DNA of 64,000 nt from Pseudomonadota bacterium (GTDB lineage: Bacteria; Myxococcota_A; UBA9042; GCA-2863065), in assembly GCA_005776585.1 (NCBI GenBank), contig SXOX01000276.1, positions 142 through 64,141 on the forward strand, given 5' to 3'. Below, one piece after another: positions 16,977 to 25,199 of the stretch (position 1 is its first letter; the number at the start of each line of letters is the position of its first letter). The notes under the pieces were generated by a model. It saw nothing but the letters and a program-made list of their open reading frames with translations, made no database searches and was not told the origin of the DNA. Position numbers and translations under genes: made by a program.

Positions 16977-17930
16977 GTGCCTGCCGCGAAGTCCAGCTAC
17001 CGCACGTTCGTGATCATGAACCCGCGCTCGTCCGGAGGCGCAACCAGCCGCCGCTGGGCCACGCTGGCCGAGGCGATCTCCTCGGCGGTCGGAACTGTCG
17101 AGCACGCGGCCACGACGGCTCCCGGTGACGCCATCCGCCTGGCGCGCGAGGCGGTCGAGGCAGGCTTCGAGATGATTGTGGCGGTCGGCGGCGATGGCAC
17201 AGTGAACGAGGTCGTCAATGGCTTCCTCGCGGTGGACCCGGCCAAGCGCGATCCCGAGCGGCTGCCCGTCCTGGGCCTCATCCCGTCGGGCACCGGCGGC
17301 GACTACCGCAAGACCTGGGGCGTCGACGACGACCCGATTCGTGCGACGGAGCGGCTCCGTGGGCTCGACGCGCGCACCGCGGACGCCGGGCGGGTGACCT
17401 GGACGGAGGGAGGCGTCGAGCGCTCGCGTCACTTCGCCAACATCGCGTCGTTCGGACTCGGCGGTGAGGTCTCCGCGCGGGTGAACGCGTCGTCGAAGCG
17501 CCTGGGCGGCCGCGCGTCGTTCTTTCTGGCCTCTGCCGGCGCGCTCATGTCGTGGCGCAACCGGCGCGTCAAGCTGGTCACCGACCTCGATCACCCGCAC
17601 GAGGGCCTCATCACGTTCGGCGCGCTGGCCATCGGTCGCGTCTTTGGCGGCGGCATGCGCATCGCGCCCGACGCCGATCCTGGGGACGGGATGTTCGACA
17701 TCGTCACGGTCGAGCGCATGACCAAGCTCGACCTGCTGCGGTTTACGAGCGTGTATTCGGGTCGGCACCTCACCGATCCCAAGGTCTCCCTGTGGCATGG
17801 GGCCTCGGTCACCGCGGAGCTGCTCGACGCCGATCCGACGCCCTGTCGCATCGAGGCCGACGGCGAGGTCTTCGGTCAGCTGCCGGCGCGGTTCGACATC
17901 GTGCCGAGCGCCTTTCGCGTCAAGGTCTAG
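16977..17930 (+). CDS. diacylglycerol/lipid kinase family protein (YegS/BmrU/DagK-like)
   Basis: FVIMNPRSSGG, VAVGGDGTVNEV (GGDGT), GLIPSGTGGD. Start uncertain: GTG 16977, TTG 16971 or ATG 17016. Confidence 0.85.
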   Translation: MPAAKSSYRTFVIMNPRSSGGATSRRWATLAEAISSAVGTVEHAATTAPGDAIRLAREAVEAGFEMIVAVGGDGTVNEVVNGFLAVDPAKRDPERLPVLGLIPSGTGGDYRKTWGVDDDPIRATERLRGLDARTADAGRVTWTEGGVERSRHFANIASFGLGGEVSARVNASSKRLGGRASFFLASAGALMSWRNRRVKLVTDLDHPHEGLITFGALAIGRVFGGGMRIAPDADPGDGMFDIVTVERMTKLDLLRFTSVYSGRHLTDPKVSLWHGASVTAELLDADPTPCRIEADGEVFGQLPARFDIVPSAFRVKV

Positions 17931-17933
17931 CCG

Positions 17934-20666
17934 TTGAGCCCCACCACTGGTCGACAGCAGCCCATCATTCGCCCGCGTCGCAGCCGCACCGCGGAGCTGC
18001 GCGCGGCCGCCATCCGGATCGCGACCGACAAGCGCCGACTGACCGACCTTGCGCTGTCCACGTTGTCGGGCTGCCTCGTATTCTTGTCGTTTCCGGCCTA
18101 CGACCTCTGGCCTCTGCTCTGGGTCTCGCTCGTCCCGCTGTTGTTCGTCGTCCACGAAAAGCGGCCGTGGCAAGCGTTCGGTTGGGGCTTCTGGGCGGGC
18201 CTGGTGACGAACTGGGGCGGCTTCTGGTGGGTCACCGGAATGCTCATGGATTTTGGCCACTTCTCGCTCGCGGCCGCCATCCCGATCTGCACATTGCTGT
18301 GCGCCTATCAGGGGCTCGTGTTCGCGCTCTGGGCCGGACTGACCTCCGCGATCGTCCAGCGCACGCGCGCCAACATCCTGTGGGTCGCGCCCGTTACTTG
18401 GGCCGTCGTCGAGTGGACGCTCCCTTTCATTTTCCCGTGGTATTTCGGCAATGGCCAATATAAATTCTATGCCGCAATTCAAATCTGCGAGGTCATCGGC
18501 GTCACCGGCCTCTCGTTCTTGTTGGTCCTGCTCAACACGGGGCTCTATGCGGGAGCACGCCTTGCCGTGGAAGGCCAATGGAAGCTCGCATGGCGTGAGC
18601 CGGCGCTCGTCTCCGGGATCTTCGTCCTCAATCTCATCTACGGGGTCGTCCGAATGGTCCAGGTGGACGCGGCGATGGAGGCCGCGCCCAAGCTCCGCAT
18701 CGGCGTCGGCGAGGCCAACGTGGGCATCTTCGAGAAGGAGGCCAAGCACCTGACCCGACCCGAGGAGAAGATCGCGATGCTGCGCGGCAACATCCTCAAG
18801 CATCACCTGCTAGCCGCAGAGCTCGAGGAGACTCACAAAGTCGATCTCATTGTCGAGCCGGAGTCGAGCTTCATCCCGGTCCCCTGGTGGTTTCAGACCG
18901 TGCGGTTCAAGCGCTCGGACCTCTTCACCGTGGTCGCCGGTTCGAATGGCAGCGTCTACGAGCTCCGAGACCGCAAGTGGGTCGGCCCGCGCGTGTTGGC
19001 CAAGAGCGGCCGCTCGGCGTCGGCGGGGCCCACGTCACTGCGGAGCCTCTCGGCGGCGCGCGAGGACGTGCTGCTGGCCGTCGGCGACGATGGCGTCGTG
19101 CAGCGTTGGGACGGCTCCGAGTGGACCGCAGAGGCCACGCCCGCGACGAGCACGTTGTATGGCGTATGGGCGGGGTTCGAGCTCGACCGCGGCTTTCGCG
19201 CCGATGGGGCGCCGACGGTGGCCATGGCGGTCGGTGAGCGCGGCGTGGCCATCCGTCGCGATGAATCGGGGACGTGGACGGCGACCGACACGCGCGTTCA
19301 GTCGACGCTCCGCGCGGTGACTGGAGACGAGGACGGCGTCGTGTTCGCCGTGGGCGATCGCGGGACGGTGCTGCGCTTCCAGAGCGGGGCGTGGCGCAAG
19401 GAGCCCACGGACACCGGCGTCACGCTGCATGGGATTGCGATGGCCACCGACGGCACGCCCGTCGCGGTCGGCGAGCAGGGCACGCTGCTGATTCGCCAGA
19501 AGGGCGCGTGGAAGAAGCTCACCGTCGGCGAGCACCACCTGCGCGCGATCGCGGCGGAGGGGCAGCAGCTCGTGGCCGTAGGCGACGCGGGCACCGTGAT
19601 CGAGCACATCGGCGAAGGCTGGAAGCGCGTCGGCGTACCGACCGCGGTGGATCTGCTGGGCGTCGGGATCGACGGGCGAGGTGACGTGGTCATCATCGGC
19701 AAGGAGGGCGTGATCCTCACGCGACCGCGCGGCGCCACGGCGTTCACTGTGGTCCCACGGCTGCCGACGCAGGAGGTCTTCGGCCAGCTCCTGGCGGTGA
19801 CGGGCGTGCCCTATACGGAATCGCACGCCTACGCGCGCGACGCGCAGTTCCTGCAGCGCTCCGGTACGCCCCTGCCGCACGCGGCGGGAGGGGACCGCAT
19901 GGCGGCGGTCGCCGATCCCAAGGCGCTCATGCTGGCTGACACCGACACGCCGGGCGAAGAGTGGAACACGCCCATTCGCGGCTTCAAGACGCCCATCCTC
20001 CTCGGGCTCATCACTTACGACAAAGAGGAAGGCCATGTCCCGATGCTCGCGGGTCGCGATGCCCGCAAGACCTACAACAGCGCCATGCTGATCGACGGCG
20101 ACGGGCGCGTCCTGGGGCGCTACGACAAGAACTACTTGCTCATGTTCGGCGAGTACATCCCGCTCGGGGACCGCTTCCCGCAGCTCTACGAGAAGCTCCC
20201 GGAGGCGAGCCACTTCGAGGCCGGGACCACGGTCGAGACCTTCGCGTTTCGCGGTCATCAGCTCGGGATCATGATCTGCTACGAGGACATCATCCCGCGT
20301 TTTACGCGCAAGCTCGCGGGCAAGGATCCGAACGTCCTCATCAACGTGACCAACGACGCCTGGTTCGGCAAGACCAGCGAGCCGTACCTGCACCTGGCGC
20401 TGGCCGTCTTTCGGTCCGTAGAGAATCGGCTGTGGCTCATCCGCAGCACCAACACCGGCGTGAGCGTGTTCGTCGATGCGGTCGGGCGCATCAAGTCGCA
20501 GACGCGGCTCGACGACGCCGAGCTGCTCGCCGAGGACGTGCCGATGCTGCGCACCTCGACGCCGTACCGCAGCTACGGCGACGTGTTCACGTATGGGTGT
20601 ATCGTCGTCTTTGCCGTGGCCGCCATCTCCGCGCTCGTGCGGCGGCGTCCCGGCACGATCGTCTAG
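17934..20666 (+). CDS. lnt: apolipoprotein N-acyltransferase with a large internal insertion
   Basis: 910 aa, TTG start 3 nt after the kinase stop. Hydrophobic N-terminal domain. Nitrilase-fold catalytic residues in IVEPES, RYDKNYLLMFGEYIP and IMICYED. Final TM segment CIVVFAVAAISALV. Confidence 0.85.
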   Translation: MSPTTGRQQPIIRPRRSRTAELRAAAIRIATDKRRLTDLALSTLSGCLVFLSFPAYDLWPLLWVSLVPLLFVVHEKRPWQAFGWGFWAGLVTNWGGFWWVTGMLMDFGHFSLAAAIPICTLLCAYQGLVFALWAGLTSAIVQRTRANILWVAPVTWAVVEWTLPFIFPWYFGNGQYKFYAAIQICEVIGVTGLSFLLVLLNTGLYAGARLAVEGQWKLAWREPALVSGIFVLNLIYGVVRMVQVDAAMEAAPKLRIGVGEANVGIFEKEAKHLTRPEEKIAMLRGNILKHHLLAAELEETHKVDLIVEPESSFIPVPWWFQTVRFKRSDLFTVVAGSNGSVYELRDRKWVGPRVLAKSGRSASAGPTSLRSLSAAREDVLLAVGDDGVVQRWDGSEWTAEATPATSTLYGVWAGFELDRGFRADGAPTVAMAVGERGVAIRRDESGTWTATDTRVQSTLRAVTGDEDGVVFAVGDRGTVLRFQSGAWRKEPTDTGVTLHGIAMATDGTPVAVGEQGTLLIRQKGAWKKLTVGEHHLRAIAAEGQQLVAVGDAGTVIEHIGEGWKRVGVPTAVDLLGVGIDGRGDVVIIGKEGVILTRPRGATAFTVVPRLPTQEVFGQLLAVTGVPYTESHAYARDAQFLQRSGTPLPHAAGGDRMAAVADPKALMLADTDTPGEEWNTPIRGFKTPILLGLITYDKEEGHVPMLAGRDARKTYNSAMLIDGDGRVLGRYDKNYLLMFGEYIPLGDRFPQLYEKLPEASHFEAGTTVETFAFRGHQLGIMICYEDIIPRFTRKLAGKDPNVLINVTNDAWFGKTSEPYLHLALAVFRSVENRLWLIRSTNTGVSVFVDAVGRIKSQTRLDDAELLAEDVPMLRTSTPYRSYGDVFTYGCIVVFAVAAISALVRRRPGTIV
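18880..19985 (+). other. propeller-like repeat insertion within lnt (about aa 316-684)
   Basis: Seven iterations of an xxAVG(D/E)xGxVxx...W motif: VVAGSNGSVYELRDRKW, LLAVGDDGVVQRWDGSEW, AMAVGERGVAIRRDESGTW, VFAVGDRGTVLRFQSGAW, PVAVGEQGTLLIRQKGAW, LVAVGDAGTVIEHIGEGW, VVIIGKEGVILTRPRG. Confidence 0.65.
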
Positions 20667-21674: not shown

Positions 21675-23465
21675 GTGGGCAAGAACATGCTGTCCCGATC
21701 CCTGCTCCGCTCCGCGGTCCTCGTCTCCGCGTGCGCGTGGAGCTGCTCGACCTCGGAGCCGGCCGCTCCTCCATGCACCGACTGCGATGATGCCGGCGTG
21801 GTCGAAGACGACCTGGGTCTCATCGACGTTGGCGTCGAGGACATCGCGCCCGATCTCGGCAAGCCCGACGCGGGACCCGACGTCCGCGATGCCGGCGAGA
21901 CTCTGATGTGCGCTCCGAACGAGCTCAAAGGGGTCTGCGCCGGTCCCAAGGCGTTCATGCGTTGCGGCGCTACCGGCTTGGCGTGGGAGGAGATCCCGTG
22001 CCCGACTGGCGAGACGTGCTACTTCGGCCAGTGCGTCACGCTCACGTGCGCTCCCGACTCGCGCATCTGCAAGGGCCCGACCCTCGTCCAGCAGTGCAAG
22101 ATCGGCAAGGATGGCCAGTACGGCTGGCAGGACGTCGAGGTCTGCACGAGCGGCCTGTGCCACGAGGGCAAGTGCAGCCACGGATGCAAGTACGACCTCA
22201 AGCTCAAGCAGGAATTCGACTGCGCCTTCTTCGACGTCAACCTCACCGGCGACCCCGGAAAGAAGTGCGCGAGTGAGAAGCTGCTGGTCGTCCCGAGCTC
22301 CGGCGACTCGAAGCTCGCGGTCTTCGACGTGTCGGTCAATCCGCCCGTGGCGCTCGTCGGCTCGCCGTTCCAGACATGCAAGAACCCGAGCCGCATCATG
22401 ATGGACACCAATGGGGAGATCGTGGCCACCTGCCGCGAGGACGGCAAGGTCAACCGCCACAAGAAGACCGGCGAGCTGCTCTGGAGCACGAAGCTGCCCA
22501 ACTGCAACGCCTCGCGGGGCGTGGTCGTCGACACCTTTGGCCGGCTGTTCGCCGGCTGCTCGGACAACGCCACCATCTCCGAGCTCGATCCGGTCACAGG
22601 CGTCGTCAAGGCCAACGTGTCCGTCGGCGGGAACGATCCCTTCGGCGGTGGCTTCCTCTACGGCCTCGTCGCCGACGCCGACGGCCTCTACGTGGCGCTC
22701 ACGGGGGTCGGCATCACCAAGGTCACCCTCGGCGGCGAGAACGACCTCAAGATCGCGTGGACCACGAAGGTCGAGGTCTACGGCATCGCGGTCGATGGCA
22801 ACGGCTCGGTCTGGGCCGCGAGCGACAAGGCGCGCTCACTCGACACGAAGACCGGCCAGCTCGAGCAGGAGATCGCGTTTCCTAACGCATGGTACGGCTA
22901 CGGGCTCTCCGCCGGGCTCGACGGCAACGTCTACGTCGCGCTCGGTGACGGCAACGTGGTCGCCAAGATCACGGCCGATGGCAAGGTCGCCTCACTGCCG
23001 CTCGCGGGCGGTGACAACCACGACCACGGGCTCGCACTCGACGTCGATAATAATATATATACTGTGAATATGTACAGCAACTCGTGTACCAGAATCGATG
23101 CGCTGACGGGCAAGGCCACCTCGTTCGGGCAAGGGCTCCTCAACCAGCCGTATGGCTACTCCGGCGACATGACCGGCGTGATTTCGAGCTGCGTCGTCAA
23201 CGGGGGCAAGACCTGGAAGTCCGATCTCATCGACGGCGGTTCGCCCAAGGCGCACTGGCTCCAGGTCAAGTGGAAGGCCACCGAGCCGCCCGACACGCAC
23301 GTCGCGATGTTCTATCGGCTCGATGGCGGGTACTGGACGCCCATCGAGAACGGGCACGTCATCGGTGCCAAGGGGCAGAAGCTCCAGCTTCGCGGCGTGC
23401 TCGAGTCCAACGATCCGACGGCGAGCCCGACCCTCGTGTGGGTCGCGGTCGTCTGGGAGCCGTAG
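21675..23465 (+). CDS. secreted lipoprotein: Cys-rich N-terminal modules plus NHL/YVTN-like beta-propeller plus C-terminal beta-sandwich
   Basis: Lipobox LVSAC. Two Cys-rich modules (about aa 79-170). Propeller-type repeats (DTNGEIVATC, DTFGRLFAGC, DADGLYVAL, DGNGSVWAA, LDGNVYVAL, VDNNIYTVN). Start at GTG 21675 or ATG 21687. Confidence 0.75.
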   Translation: MGKNMLSRSLLRSAVLVSACAWSCSTSEPAAPPCTDCDDAGVVEDDLGLIDVGVEDIAPDLGKPDAGPDVRDAGETLMCAPNELKGVCAGPKAFMRCGATGLAWEEIPCPTGETCYFGQCVTLTCAPDSRICKGPTLVQQCKIGKDGQYGWQDVEVCTSGLCHEGKCSHGCKYDLKLKQEFDCAFFDVNLTGDPGKKCASEKLLVVPSSGDSKLAVFDVSVNPPVALVGSPFQTCKNPSRIMMDTNGEIVATCREDGKVNRHKKTGELLWSTKLPNCNASRGVVVDTFGRLFAGCSDNATISELDPVTGVVKANVSVGGNDPFGGGFLYGLVADADGLYVALTGVGITKVTLGGENDLKIAWTTKVEVYGIAVDGNGSVWAASDKARSLDTKTGQLEQEIAFPNAWYGYGLSAGLDGNVYVALGDGNVVAKITADGKVASLPLAGGDNHDHGLALDVDNNIYTVNMYSNSCTRIDALTGKATSFGQGLLNQPYGYSGDMTGVISSCVVNGGKTWKSDLIDGGSPKAHWLQVKWKATEPPDTHVAMFYRLDGGYWTPIENGHVIGAKGQKLQLRGVLESNDPTASPTLVWVAVVWEP

Positions 23466-23630: not shown

Positions 23631-24632
23631 ATGCGAACTCCCTCGTCCGTCCTCGTCGCCGCGCTCGTCACAGGCCTGTTGGCCTTTGGCGCAGCGGCGC
23701 AGTCTGTCACCTTCAAGGTCGCGTCCTTGGCCCCCAAGGGCTCGGCGTGGGCCAACATCCTCACGCGCGGCGCGGCTGACATCGAGAAGAAGACCGAGGG
23801 CCGCGTCAAGGTCCAGTTCTTCTTCCAGGGCCAGGGCGACGAGAAGGACATCGTCCGCAAGGTCAAACTCGGCCAGCTCGACGGCGCGGCGCTCACGGGT
23901 ATCGGCCTCGGCCTCATCAACCCGGACGTGCGCGTGCTGGACATCCCGTTCGCGTTCACGTCCGACAAGCAGCTCGACTACGTCCGCAAGGCCATGGCCC
24001 CGGACTTCGAGCGGCAGTTCAAGGAAGCGGGCTACATCCTCCTCGGCTGGGGCGACGTCGGCTGGGTCCACCTCTACTCCAACATCGAGGTCAACAGCAA
24101 AGACGCGCTCAAGAAGACCAAGATGTGGACGTGGACCGACGACCCGATCGCCAAGGGCCTGTTCTCGCAGCTCGGCATCGAGGGCGTCGGCATGGGCGTG
24201 CCCGACGTGCTCCCCAGCCTCTCGACCGGCAAGATCGACGCTTGCTACGGCTCGCCGCTCGCCGCCGTGGCCCTCCAGTGGTACACGAAGGTCAAGTTCG
24301 CGACCTCGCAGCCCATCGGTTACGCCTCGGGCGCGCTGATTGTCAGCAAGAAGGTCTTCGAGAAGCTCGCTGCGGCCGATCAGAAGGCCATGATCGAAGG
24401 CGGTCACGCGGTCGGCGAGCAGCTCAAGGGCCTCGTCCGCAAGGACAACGAGCGGGCCAAGGCCGCCATGAAGAAGTCGGGCATCGCGTTCACCGAGACG
24501 CCGGCCGCGTTCGTCACCGAGCTTCGGAACGCCGCGACCGCAGCGCGCTCGGCGCTCGTGGGCAAGGACAAGAGCTACAGCAAGACTGCCCTCGACACGT
24601 TCCTCAAGCACCTCGCTGCGGCCCCGAAGTAA
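23631..24632 (+). CDS. dctP: TRAP transporter substrate-binding protein (DctP family)
   Basis: 333 aa with a signal peptide ending AAAQS. DctP-like pattern (FKVASLAPKGSAW..., KVKLGQLDGAALT..., YGSPLAAVALQWY). Followed by Q and M subunits. Confidence 0.85.
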   Translation: MRTPSSVLVAALVTGLLAFGAAAQSVTFKVASLAPKGSAWANILTRGAADIEKKTEGRVKVQFFFQGQGDEKDIVRKVKLGQLDGAALTGIGLGLINPDVRVLDIPFAFTSDKQLDYVRKAMAPDFERQFKEAGYILLGWGDVGWVHLYSNIEVNSKDALKKTKMWTWTDDPIAKGLFSQLGIEGVGMGVPDVLPSLSTGKIDACYGSPLAAVALQWYTKVKFATSQPIGYASGALIVSKKVFEKLAAADQKAMIEGGHAVGEQLKGLVRKDNERAKAAMKKSGIAFTETPAAFVTELRNAATAARSALVGKDKSYSKTALDTFLKHLAAAPK

Positions 24633-25199
24633 GTGGCGGGCGTCTCGCAAGCCAAGGGGCTGCTGGAGGGCGGCGTCGACGCTCCGCCGGAAGACGGCGT
24701 CGTCGTCTACCTCCGCATGGCGGATCGGGCGCTCGGCAAGGTGGAGGAGTACGCGCTCACGCTCGTGCTCCTCGCCATGGTCGTCATCGGCGCCTGGCAG
24801 GTCATCAAGCCCGAGGGCTGGATGCGCGAGACCATCAAGTACGGCGTCCTCTTCATCGGCATGGTGGCGGGCGCGCTGGCCACGCAGTCCGATCGCCTGT
24901 TCAACATCGACATGGTGGGCCGCCTGCTCGCGCCCCGAGGCCGCCTCGTGGTGCGCATCATCACGGCCCTCTTCACGATCGGCATGTGCTGGGTGCTCTA
25001 CAAGGCGTCGATGGCCTTCCGTGACTCGATCGCGGACGAGGCCGGCGAGCCCATCAAGCCGGCGCTGGGGATGCTGCCGCTGCCGTATGGCGCGCTCCTC
25101 ATCGCGACGCACTTGGCACTGCATGCGCTCATCGACGTCTACTACCTCGCGACCGGCAAGCCCTCTCCCGATGTCGTCGACCTGGTGCCAAAAGCATGA
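24633..25199 (+). CDS. dctQ: TRAP transporter small permease (DctQ)
   Basis: Four hydrophobic segments. GTG directly after the dctP stop, with an alternative ATG at 24717. ATGA overlap with dctM. Confidence 0.8.
   Translation: MAGVSQAKGLLEGGVDAPPEDGVVVYLRMADRALGKVEEYALTLVLLAMVVIGAWQVIKPEGWMRETIKYGVLFIGMVAGALATQSDRLFNIDMVGRLLAPRGRLVVRIITALFTIGMCWVLYKASMAFRDSIADEAGEPIKPALGMLPLPYGALLIATHLALHALIDVYYLATGKPSPDVVDLVPKA

Follow-up and report, generated by a model that had tools for sequence, protein, structure and literature searches.

The lnt gene of the window (the whole stretch of DNA that was analysed, 64,000 nucleotides) encodes a 910-residue protein which, judged by its core and its essential residues, appears to be a catalytically intact apolipoprotein N-acyltransferase (Lnt, the enzyme by which bacterial lipoproteins receive their third fatty acid), and whose periplasmic nitrilase domain is interrupted by an insert predicted to fold as a seven-bladed β-propeller. 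Lnts of this kind, found in ~60 lineages of uncultured Myxococcota, are an undescribed variant of the enzyme, and we hold the anatomy set out below with high confidence. With regard to function, the likeliest role that can be inferred is that of a protein- or peptide-docking or gating module, which would lie beside the opening where the lipoprotein peptide leaves the pocket.

An N-acyltransferase with a split nitrilase domain

The protein matches the lnt equivalog model TIGR00546 in two stretches with 228.2 bits (cut-off 132.9), and Pfam LNT_N matches aa 45-202 with a score of 99.8 (cut-off 27.1). Pfam CN_hydrolase (85.5 vs a cut-off of 23.2) covers only aa 707-869, i.e., profile positions 84-246, and the domain is therefore split. 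Lnt chains from the PDB align only to aa 33-216 and aa 727-907 of the 910 residues. Outside the insert, the AF2 model can be superposed on Lnts from E. coli and P. aeruginosa with a target-normalised TM of 0.71-0.81 in Foldseek; for 5n6h, 5vrg and 5n6m compared with the AF2 model, TMt is 0.79-0.81 and E is ~1e-18. The model and its Foldseek matches show the polytopic membrane domain, the periplasmic α-β-β-α nitrilase domain and the C-terminal TM helix that characterise an Lnt (Table 1); the reaction that such an enzyme would catalyse is the N-acylation of diacylglyceryl-cysteine, for which the sn-1 acyl group of a phospholipid serves as donor.

The motifs that contain the catalytic Glu, Lys and Cys are located where the initial annotation had placed them, and the interval between Glu and Lys, which it had estimated at approx. 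420 residues, measures 422 residues as opposed to 68 in E. coli Lnt. All 37 homologues have the E/K/C triad, and across them F167-P168-W169, E740, Y783/E784, N807-F811 and H820 are invariant, as are the motifs FPW, FGEYIP, CYED and NDAWF. On the basis of the PDB alignment and the E. coli sequence, the accessory residues presumably correspond to F146-W148, E343, Y388/E389, N412-F416 and H425 of the E. coli enzyme. The protein shares with the E. coli and P. aeruginosa Lnts (5n6h, 5vrg, 5n6m, 8b0p) the membrane and periplasmic nitrilase domains, the triad and these four motifs, whereas its β2-α2 loop, which is short in those enzymes, carries a ~310-aa domain and a ~40-aa linker.

Table 1. Features of the propeller-bearing lnt locus (positions in the window; stop codon included in the CDS)
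Feature	Residues	Position	Strand	Basis or remarks
yegS-type lipid kinase gene, upstream		16977..17930	+	DAGK_cat + YegS_C; ends 3 nt before lnt
lnt CDS	910 aa	17934..20666	+	TTG start
Membrane domain, helices	18-250	17985..18683	+	Pfam LNT_N aa 45-202; AF2 helices H18-H250; PDB Lnt chains align aa 33-216
N-terminal nitrilase piece (β1, α1, β2)	251-312	18684..18869	+	AF2 elements E253-260, H276-301, E305-307; ends with catalytic E310
Catalytic Glu E310	IVEPES, 306-311	18861-18863		codon position
Seven-bladed Ycf48-like β-propeller insert (predicted)	320-632	18891..19829	+	repeat statistics, AF2, Foldseek, profile
Return linker	633-681	19830..19976	+	conserved S643/P646-L647-P648; short helices aa 655-677 (H655-660, H663-668, H674-677) = α2 of nitrilase fold
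C-terminal nitrilase piece	682-880	19977..20573	+	K732, E740, C782, Y783/E784, N807-D-A-W-F811
Catalytic Lys K732	RYDKNYLLMFGEYIP, 729-743	20127-20129		codon position
Catalytic Cys C782	IMICYED, 779-785	20277-20279		codon position
C-terminal TM helix	884-902	20583..20639	+	AF2 helix H884-902; aligns to last helix of E. coli Lnt

The inserted propeller and its relatives

In the AF2 model, the secondary-structure elements follow one another in the order β1, α1, β2 (with E310), insert, α2 and β3, and the insert begins only ~10 residues past the catalytic Glu. The interval that the insert and its linker occupy spans 18-25 residues in canonical Lnts, compared with which the net gain here is ~350 aa. 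Because the propeller is located inside the periplasmic nitrilase domain, it is on the periplasmic side. The insertion site is the β2-α2 loop, which in our own reading is Arm 5 among the arms of the active-site funnel in E. coli Lnt; where these arms are defined, a figure legend gives Arm 5 as 'beta1-alpha2' (PMC5500888).

The initial annotation had delimited the insertion at 18880-19985, which does correspond to aa 316-684; however, the propeller proper occupies only aa ~320-632 of this interval, and the rest is a linker with remnants of α2. The seven repeats that had been reported were recovered (aa 335-376, 377-427, 428-469, 470-505, 506-542, 543-581 and 582-621, with a spacing of 36-51 aa): the mean pairwise local score between blades is 35.7, whereas shuffled blades give 19.9 +/- 0.94 (z = 16.9). 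The first and the seventh blade are degenerate, and the blade motif is kept across the propeller-Lnt family. AF2 models the entire Lnt with a pLDDT of 88.5 and a pTM of 0.87, and it confidently predicts the seven-bladed propeller that had been proposed within the periplasmic nitrilase domain, with 28 strands that form seven four-stranded groups and a pLDDT that mostly exceeds 90. Disorder of the insert, which had been named beforehand as an outcome that speaks against the proposal, is ruled out by these values. The junctions of the propeller carry conserved motifs (K326/D329/F331 on one side and S643/P646-L647-P648/R682-G683-F684 on the other), which, together with the high pTM of the whole chain, suggests that the propeller is held in a fixed orientation relative to the enzyme. 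Within the family alignment, mean identity is 30% in the propeller vs. 48-62% in the enzyme core. The propeller positions that are conserved at >=75% are structural Gly and Leu only, and its net charge ranges from -12 to +18; consequently, mapping of net charge and conservation over the family revealed no conserved functional patch on the propeller.

The closest natural structural matches of the insert are Ycf48/HCF136 proteins. Foldseek matches Ycf48 (5ojr, 2xbg) at 2e-10 to 1e-9 (for 5ojr, E is 2.2e-10 and TMt is 0.61), and the insertion family profile matches the PDB sequences 5ojp (9.4e-12), 2xbg (4.9e-11) and 5oj3 (2.9e-9). The insertion sequence alone gave no significant match when compared with Pfam and PDB sequences, and the link to Ycf48 is thus visible only through the family profile and the comparison of folds. 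Similarly, PSII_BNR (PF14870) was not found in the query insertion at E <= 0.1, and the Pfam gathering score was not reached. Among full-length homologues, P0009 passes this score (29.6 vs 27), and P0006 (26.5) and P0008 (25.7) fall just under it; two of 15 insertion-only sequences match the model at E <= 0.01 (best 2.7e-08). A seven-bladed fold with profile homology to solved Ycf48/HCF136 structures places the insert in the Ycf48/HCF136 superfamily. It shares with these proteins (PF14870; 2xbg, 5ojr, 5oj3) the seven blades and a motif of the type hydrophobic-AVG-x-x-G ... W, whereas identity to the insert is ~14%, and the propeller lies here within the chain of an enzyme from non-photosynthetic Myxococcota. 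In oxygenic phototrophs, Ycf48 is a (lipo)protein in its own right, which binds D1 while photosystem II is assembled; it is lumenal, i.e., on the extracytoplasmic side of the membrane, as is the periplasmic propeller of Lnt. The named sources of the propeller-bearing Lnts are Myxococcota, 'Myxococcales' and 'Deltaproteobacteria' MAGs, and none of these groups is known to include oxygenic phototrophs. Because the domain is internal to Lnt and its hosts are not phototrophs, orthology with Ycf48 was rejected, and the insert is regarded as a relative from the same superfamily.

The initial annotation had described the blade motif as 'BNR/Ycf48-like'. The Ycf48 part of this description is borne out by the fold and the profile, whereas the BNR part is not: the Asp-box S-x-D-x-G-x-T-W is not repeated in the blades (blade 3 alone approximates it, with D-E-S-G-T-W at aa 444-449, and the others keep only G..W), and neither Lnt nor the insertion has a match to Pfam BNR. 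An exhaustive search with the insertion returned 10,883 representatives at E <= 1e-3, mostly multi-propeller giants; the module is therefore common, and no specific donor of the propeller could be identified in this search.

In prolyl oligopeptidases (family S9), a seven-bladed propeller (aa 72-427) lies within the sequence of the catalytic domain, adjoins the active site and divides the hydrolase domain into two segments (aa 1-71 and 428-710; PMC5446394). However, S9 enzymes are soluble α/β-hydrolases with a Ser/Asp/His triad, whereas Lnt has a CN_hydrolase of the nitrilase fold as its catalytic domain; membership in such a propeller-gated family was rejected, the resemblance is architectural only and no homology is claimed. 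Mycobacterial Ppm1 (Rv2051c / BCG_2070c) is likewise an Lnt with an extra domain in one polypeptide, but there the Ppm synthase domain, itself an enzyme, is fused C-terminal to the Lnt domain, and the nitrilase domain is uninterrupted (PMC3850990).

Distribution and origin of propeller-bearing Lnts

The propeller-in-Lnt architecture was found in ~60 protein clusters (33-59% identity) from JGI, ENA, NCBI and Logan assemblies, and it is present in 13 GTDB species representatives. All named carriers are uncultured Myxococcota, 'Myxococcales' or 'Deltaproteobacteria' MAGs, and the insert measures 328-395 aa family-wide. A search with the profile of the 37-sequence alignment among 8000 word-sharing candidates returned the same set and no long forms outside Myxococcota. 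A protein identical to that of the window (P0001) is present in public collections, and the source contig of lnt is k141_1687573 of ENA ERZ27257034. That the insert might be a standard feature of characterised Lnts had also been listed beforehand as adverse to the proposal; it is not such a feature, since the E. coli and P. aeruginosa structures are devoid of it. We found no paper that describes a propeller-bearing Lnt, and some automatic annotations flag a PSII-assembly-factor-like segment in such proteins.

In the phylogenetic tree, the propeller-Lnt clade has a bootstrap value of 96/100. The propeller forms by themselves are monophyletic in 0/100 replicates, and the group with mid-length inserts in 100/100. 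Sister lineages, nested in or adjoining the propeller clade, carry, at the same loop, an unrelated insert of 131-227 aa or one of 58-64 aa, and the insert of the intermediate form P0059 is poorly structured (AF2 pLDDT 25-54) and gave no assignable fold; the site therefore tolerates arbitrary insertions. The best explanation of the distribution is that the propeller was gained by an ancestor within one lineage of uncultured Myxococcota.

The gene neighbourhood was compared across 16 long-form loci, including the window. The yegS gene lies next to lnt in five of them (the window, L082, L001, L005 and L053), and it is probably an operon partner of lnt, separate from the insertion itself. No lol, lsp or lgt genes were found near lnt in any of the 16 loci, and apart from the partly conserved yegS, the neighbours give no hint of function. 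The initial annotation had counted at least nine lipobox proteins in the window and supposed a very large lipoproteome; two regex scans of the window revealed 2-3 clear lipobox proteins under strict filters, a count that is to be read with the ambiguity of such scans in 70% GC sequence.

Possible functions of the propeller and their significance

The funnel of Lnt has its opening on the membrane side and receives its substrates laterally, out of the bilayer (PMC5500888); the product peptide exits between arms 3 and 7 (PMC10313180). Since the nitrilase domain bears the arms around the funnel on its front face, the propeller, when placed relative to this portal on the basis of topology and the literature, would sit beside the peptide exit. 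We assign a probability of roughly 0.35-0.4 to the reading that it serves there as a protein/peptide-interaction platform that couples N-acylation to capture or hand-off. The propeller could dock diacyl-lipoproteins as they arrive, by their protein part or their tether, or else a partner in the pathway (e.g., the Lol machinery). The recruitment of substrates or partners proposed in the initial annotation is thus plausible in view of the insertion site. N-acylation would then be coupled to substrate capture or product hand-off, and the ping-pong mechanism at C782 would not differ from that of E. coli Lnt. The Ycf48 structures include, according to their PDB titles, a complex with a D1 peptide, which was counted as a precedent for peptide docking. 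It is rather doubtful, though conceivable, that the propeller is specifically a built-in receptor or hand-off module that binds diacyl-lipoproteins through their protein moiety or tether, or a sorting machine (e.g., Lol) through its periplasmic domain.

The propeller might instead act as a steric gate or selectivity filter, such that only some lipoproteins (selected by tether length or fold state) or only some phospholipids gain access to C782. We consider this unlikely, although the topology is that of the S9 peptidases, in which a propeller splits the catalytic domain and limits entry to the active site, the insert starts close to E310, and the conserved junctions and high pTM would be consistent with rigid packing. 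The funnel with its lateral entry faces the membrane, so a propeller on an upper-half arm may not cover the entrance, and no face of the propeller is conserved.

It is comparably improbable that the β2-α2 loop is a permissive site which took up an envelope propeller of a common kind, and that this persists mainly as a stable and harmless addition without a particular part in N-acylation. Such a passenger domain nonetheless stays a serious rival because conservation is limited to the structural Gly and Leu, i.e., to residues that determine the fold, and net charge varies. The unrelated inserts at the same loop in related lineages, the monophyly values of the propeller forms alone and of the mid-length group, and the abundance of the module elsewhere point in the same direction. 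However, all 59 full-length propeller forms in the tree keep seven blades and a narrow range of length despite divergence down to 33% identity, the junction motifs are conserved, and a 350-aa periplasmic domain would be costly without selection.

We regard as decidedly improbable a third alternative, that the propeller positions Lnt within the envelope by attachment to a glycan, to peptidoglycan or to a component of the outer membrane, rather than touching the substrates of the enzyme. The nearest non-Lnt relatives of the insert are large surface-type proteins with Ig-like domains, and the searches gave weak matches to Tectonin and to a glycosyl hydrolase family of BNR type, which would fit such a role; these matches all lie below curated cut-offs, however, the Asp-box is degenerate and no carbohydrate-binding residues are conserved. 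Very improbable, too, is a neofunctionalised paralogue, i.e., a long protein that acylates something else while a canonical lnt elsewhere in the genome performs the housekeeping function. Two Lnt homologues do exist in some bacteria, for example in M. bovis BCG (PMC3850990), but the protein scores above the cut-off of the lnt equivalog model, and none of its essential residues is lost. In addition, a pattern-based scan showed no second locus for the 13 long-form GTDB genomes among the best 80 of at least 597 loci, among which canonical Myxococcota Lnts of similar distance do appear; this weakly argues against a paralogue. Finally, an assembly chimera or frameshift artefact that fused lnt to an unrelated propeller gene, a possibility raised in the initial annotation and suggested by the unusual length and by an insert GC ~8 points above that of the flanking lnt parts, is effectively refuted, because nitrilase segments flank the insert in one frame in ~60 independent clusters from independent samples and assemblers, and the GC of the insert equals the genomic background.

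Most Gram-negative bacteria depend on Lnt for viability, and the enzyme is a drug target. To our knowledge, all structural and mechanistic work on Lnt rests on the ~510-aa enzymes of E. coli and P. aeruginosa, and the way in which Lnt contacts the protein part of its substrates and in which the product passes to sorting is poorly defined to date. It should be noted that the members of the family described here all come from uncultured MAGs and that domain insertions as such are common. Nonetheless, a β2-α2 arm that tolerates large grafts is useful for engineering and tagging Lnt, and if the propeller binds substrates or partners, it would make substrate recognition and coupling directly accessible to experiments. 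In addition, the finding extends what is known of the roles of Ycf48-type propellers beyond photosynthesis. If the receptor reading is true, this Lnt would be the first to have a specificity domain of its own, N-acylation in this Myxococcota lineage would be linked physically to the selection of substrates or to their later trafficking, and the propeller would provide a natural handle on how Lnt recognises hundreds of unrelated lipoproteins.

A complete acyltransferase with a split catalytic domain

Judged by family models, the 910-aa product of lnt is an apolipoprotein N-acyltransferase, and the same models reveal that its nitrilase domain is split. NCBIfam equivalog TIGR00546 (lnt) is matched at 228 bits (cut-off 133) in two stretches, Pfam LNT_N covers aa 45-202, and solved Lnt chains match at aa 33-216 and aa 727-907, with nothing between. 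The CN_hydrolase match is confined to aa 707-869 (profile positions 84-246); since it starts at position 84, the front of the nitrilase domain must be set apart from the remainder. The catalytic residues lie exactly where the initial annotation had placed them: E310 in IVEPES (aa 306-311), in a P-E-S context as in E. coli W-P-E267-S, K732 in RYDKNYLLMFGEYIP (aa 729-743), and C782 in IMICYED (aa 779-785). The enzyme core is thus intact. Between Glu and Lys lie 422 residues, compared with 68 in E. coli Lnt.

This interval contains seven hydrophobic-AVG-x-x-G...W repeats, starting at aa 335, 377, 428, 470, 506, 543, and 582. Their iteration, noted earlier from the sequence, is borne out by statistics: shuffling the blades lowers the mean pairwise local alignment score from 35.7 to 19.9 ± 0.9 (z = 16.9). 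AlphaFold2, run on the full 910-aa protein with a 37-sequence family alignment as input, gave a model with a mean pLDDT of 88.5 and a pTM of 0.87, in which pLDDT falls below 50 only at the termini and at aa 699-702. From about residue 320 to 632 the model contains only beta structure, with 28 strands arranged four to a group in seven groups and completed by a closing hairpin, and pLDDT exceeds 90 in most 10-residue blocks; the insert is therefore predicted to be ordered. The model runs from beta1 (253-260) through alpha1 (276-301) and beta2 (305-307, continuing into E310) to the propeller, which is followed by short helices (655-677), beta3 (688-696), beta4, and beta5, leading to K732. According to this order, the insert fills the beta2-alpha2 loop, immediately past the catalytic Glu, and the remnant of alpha2 comes after the propeller. 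On its front face, the nitrilase domain bears nine loops ("arms") that surround a funnel-shaped active-site pocket (Wiktor et al., PMC5500888; the legend reads "beta1 and alpha2", taken here as beta2-alpha2). Smithers et al. (PMC10313180) show that the product peptide exits between arms 3 and 7. Topology places the propeller in the periplasm, on the funnel side of this domain.

When the whole model was compared with the PDB using Foldseek, ranks 1-24 were all taken by Lnt structures from E. coli and P. aeruginosa (target-normalised TM 0.71-0.81 at E about 1e-18), and the next tier comprised Ycf48 structures (5ojr, 5oj5, 5ojp, 2xbg, 8am5_S; E 2e-10 to 7e-9, TM about 0.6) together with seven-bladed designer propellers. 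The query insert alone had no significant match among Pfam and PDB sequences; a profile built from 15 family inserts matched Ycf48-like proteins (9e-12 to 1e-10) and HCF136 (3e-9), and some homologues reach the Pfam cut-offs for PSII_BNR and Beta-prop_HVO_0234. The BNR Asp-box is nearly absent, blade 3 (DESGTW) being its sole approximation. Taken together, these results place the insert in the Ycf48/HCF136 propeller superfamily as a divergent member, and its identification as a Ycf48 orthologue or a canonical BNR protein is rejected. Of the BNR/Ycf48-like propeller proposed initially, the seven blades and the Ycf48 likeness hold, and the BNR label is weak.

Distribution and history

The insertion is not an assembly artefact. 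Public collections include the identical protein, the window itself corresponding to contig k141_1687573 of ENA ERZ27257034, and about 60 clusters (90% identity) of Lnts of 815-953 aa, drawn from JGI, ENA, NCBI, and Logan assemblies, match the query with > 88% coverage and 33-59% identity. Among GTDB species representatives, at least 13 long-form loci occur in the matches listed (best 80 of at least 597). Because the long form recurs in this way across independent assemblies, a chimera is excluded. All 37 aligned members retain the E/K/C triad and a Glu-Lys interval of 380-448 aa. Wherever a member is named, its source is a MAG labelled 'Myxococcales' or 'Myxococcota bacterium', the 13 GTDB loci all belong to uncultured Myxococcota or 'Deltaproteobacteria' MAGs, and a canonical gene of about 1.5 kb is found in representatives of Polyangia, Polyangiaceae, Sandaracinaceae, Desulfobacterales, Geobacter, and others. 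Within reach of these searches, propeller-Lnt is confined to one uncultured Myxococcota clade.

Nor is the insertion a standard feature of characterised enzymes: in E. coli and P. aeruginosa Lnt, the corresponding loop is just a short one. Mycobacterial Ppm1, the one known multi-domain Lnt, differs in being an end-to-end fusion with a Ppm synthase domain (PMC3850990). Full-text searches (Lnt with propeller, Lnt in Myxococcus) found no description of a propeller-bearing Lnt. The segment has been flagged by automatic annotation only, for example in the JGI name 'apolipoprotein N-acyltransferase/photosystem II stability/assembly factor-like' and in precomputed PF14870 matches on a few family members.

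When the insert was taken out and a neighbour-joining tree was built from 460 core columns, every propeller form fell in one clade, which also takes in a few forms with a short insert (bootstrap 96/100); the propeller forms by themselves were monophyletic in none of 100 replicates. In four Lnts of 641-790 aa (P0059, P0062, P0065, and P0066), which form a tight group (100/100), the same loop is occupied by a Cys-containing insert of 131-227 aa that is unrelated to the propeller; its AlphaFold pLDDT of 25-54 is too low for a fold to be assigned. Since this group is nested among the propeller forms, replacement or decay of the propeller is suggested, and in the simplest scenario the propeller was gained once and was later replaced or lost. 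Lnts of the P0059 type may also be encoded at GTDB loci L012-L014, where the matches span about 1.9 kb. The beta2-alpha2 loop is clearly a permissive insertion site.

Origin of the module and genomic setting

This type of propeller is very common: in a search of 1.84 billion sequences, 10,883 representatives match at E <= 1e-3, of which 2,867 reach E <= 1e-10, and no specific donor can be named. Outside Lnt, the best matches are to multi-propeller giants of up to 6,713 aa, with as many as 27 matched stretches, and to proteins about 600 aa long; Ig-like domains and PSII_BNR or HVO_0234-type matches occur in some of them. The nearest non-Lnt relatives of the blade sequence (P0090-P0099 and others) are tandem-propeller giants of 2,000-6,700 aa with 10-27 matched stretches; several carry bacterial Ig-like domains, and one, P0109, has an NB-ARC/NACHT region. 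Across 18000-20500, the GC content of the insert (0.69-0.73) equals the genomic background (surroundings 0.70-0.74), and thus there is no compositional sign of recent transfer; the difference from the lower values of the flanking lnt membrane and nitrilase segments (0.62-0.64) probably reflects amino-acid composition rather than foreign origin.

The yegS-type gene and lnt are probably parts of one operon. Their linkage recurs in four further long-form loci (L082, L001, L005, and L053; 39-57% identity) and was not found in L083 or the remaining ones. No lol, lgt, or lspA gene lies within 8 kb of lnt. The N-terminus of the Vgb_lyase-type protein, MLSRSLLRSAVLVSAC, resembles a lipoprotein signal peptide; this protein, encoded close to lnt, may be a substrate of Lnt. 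At least nine lipoproteins had been counted in the window, whereas two simple lipobox scans with strict filters yielded 2-3 unambiguous signal peptides.

Features of the lnt region and lipoprotein signals in the window
Feature	Position	Strand	Remarks
yegS-type lipid kinase gene (DAGK_cat + YegS_C)	16977-17930	+	ends 3 nt before lnt start codon
lnt ORF	17934-20666	+	910 aa, TTG start
592-aa protein, Pfam Vgb_lyase (propeller-type) match	21687-23465	+	two genes downstream of lnt
DctP/DctQ TRAP-transporter genes and universal stress protein gene	23631-25199	+	same strand as lnt
Lipoprotein signal peptide	28508	-	lipobox scan, example
Lipoprotein signal peptide	43846	-	lipobox scan, example
Lipoprotein signal peptide	49660	+	lipobox scan, example

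Possible roles of the propeller

Given the intact core, the same ping-pong chemistry as in E. coli would be expected, with an acyl-Cys782 thioester formed before transfer to the alpha-amino group. Propellers of the Ycf48 superfamily are peptide and protein binders; PDB entry titles, for example, record Ycf48 crystallised with D1 peptide. Because the junction motifs are conserved (K326/D329/F331 and S643/P646-L647-P648/R682-G683-F684) and whole-chain pTM is high, the propeller would be rigidly attached; it would sit beside the funnel and the opening through which the product peptide leaves. We tentatively favour (probability about 0.4) a docking platform to which the protein moiety or tether of a diacyl-lipoprotein, or else a pathway partner, would bind. 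Three findings count against any specific binding function: conservation of the propeller is limited to structural Gly/Leu positions (mean identity 30% versus 48-62% for the core), its net charge varies across the family between -12 and +18, and sister lineages have other, unrelated inserts in this loop. Two rivals come close behind, each somewhat less probable: a steric gate like that of prolyl oligopeptidase, whose catalytic domain is also split by a seven-bladed propeller (PMC5446394), and a passenger domain that is simply tolerated. Pure neutrality is difficult to reconcile with the retention of all seven blades, the narrow range of insert length, and junctions conserved over a clade diverged to 33% identity.

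The recruiting role suggested in the initial annotation is plausible. A real, conserved, and well-folded Ycf48-like seven-bladed propeller resides within Arm 5 of Lnt, the beta2-alpha2 loop of the funnel; with a function that is as yet predicted only, propeller-Lnt represents a new form of a known enzyme.
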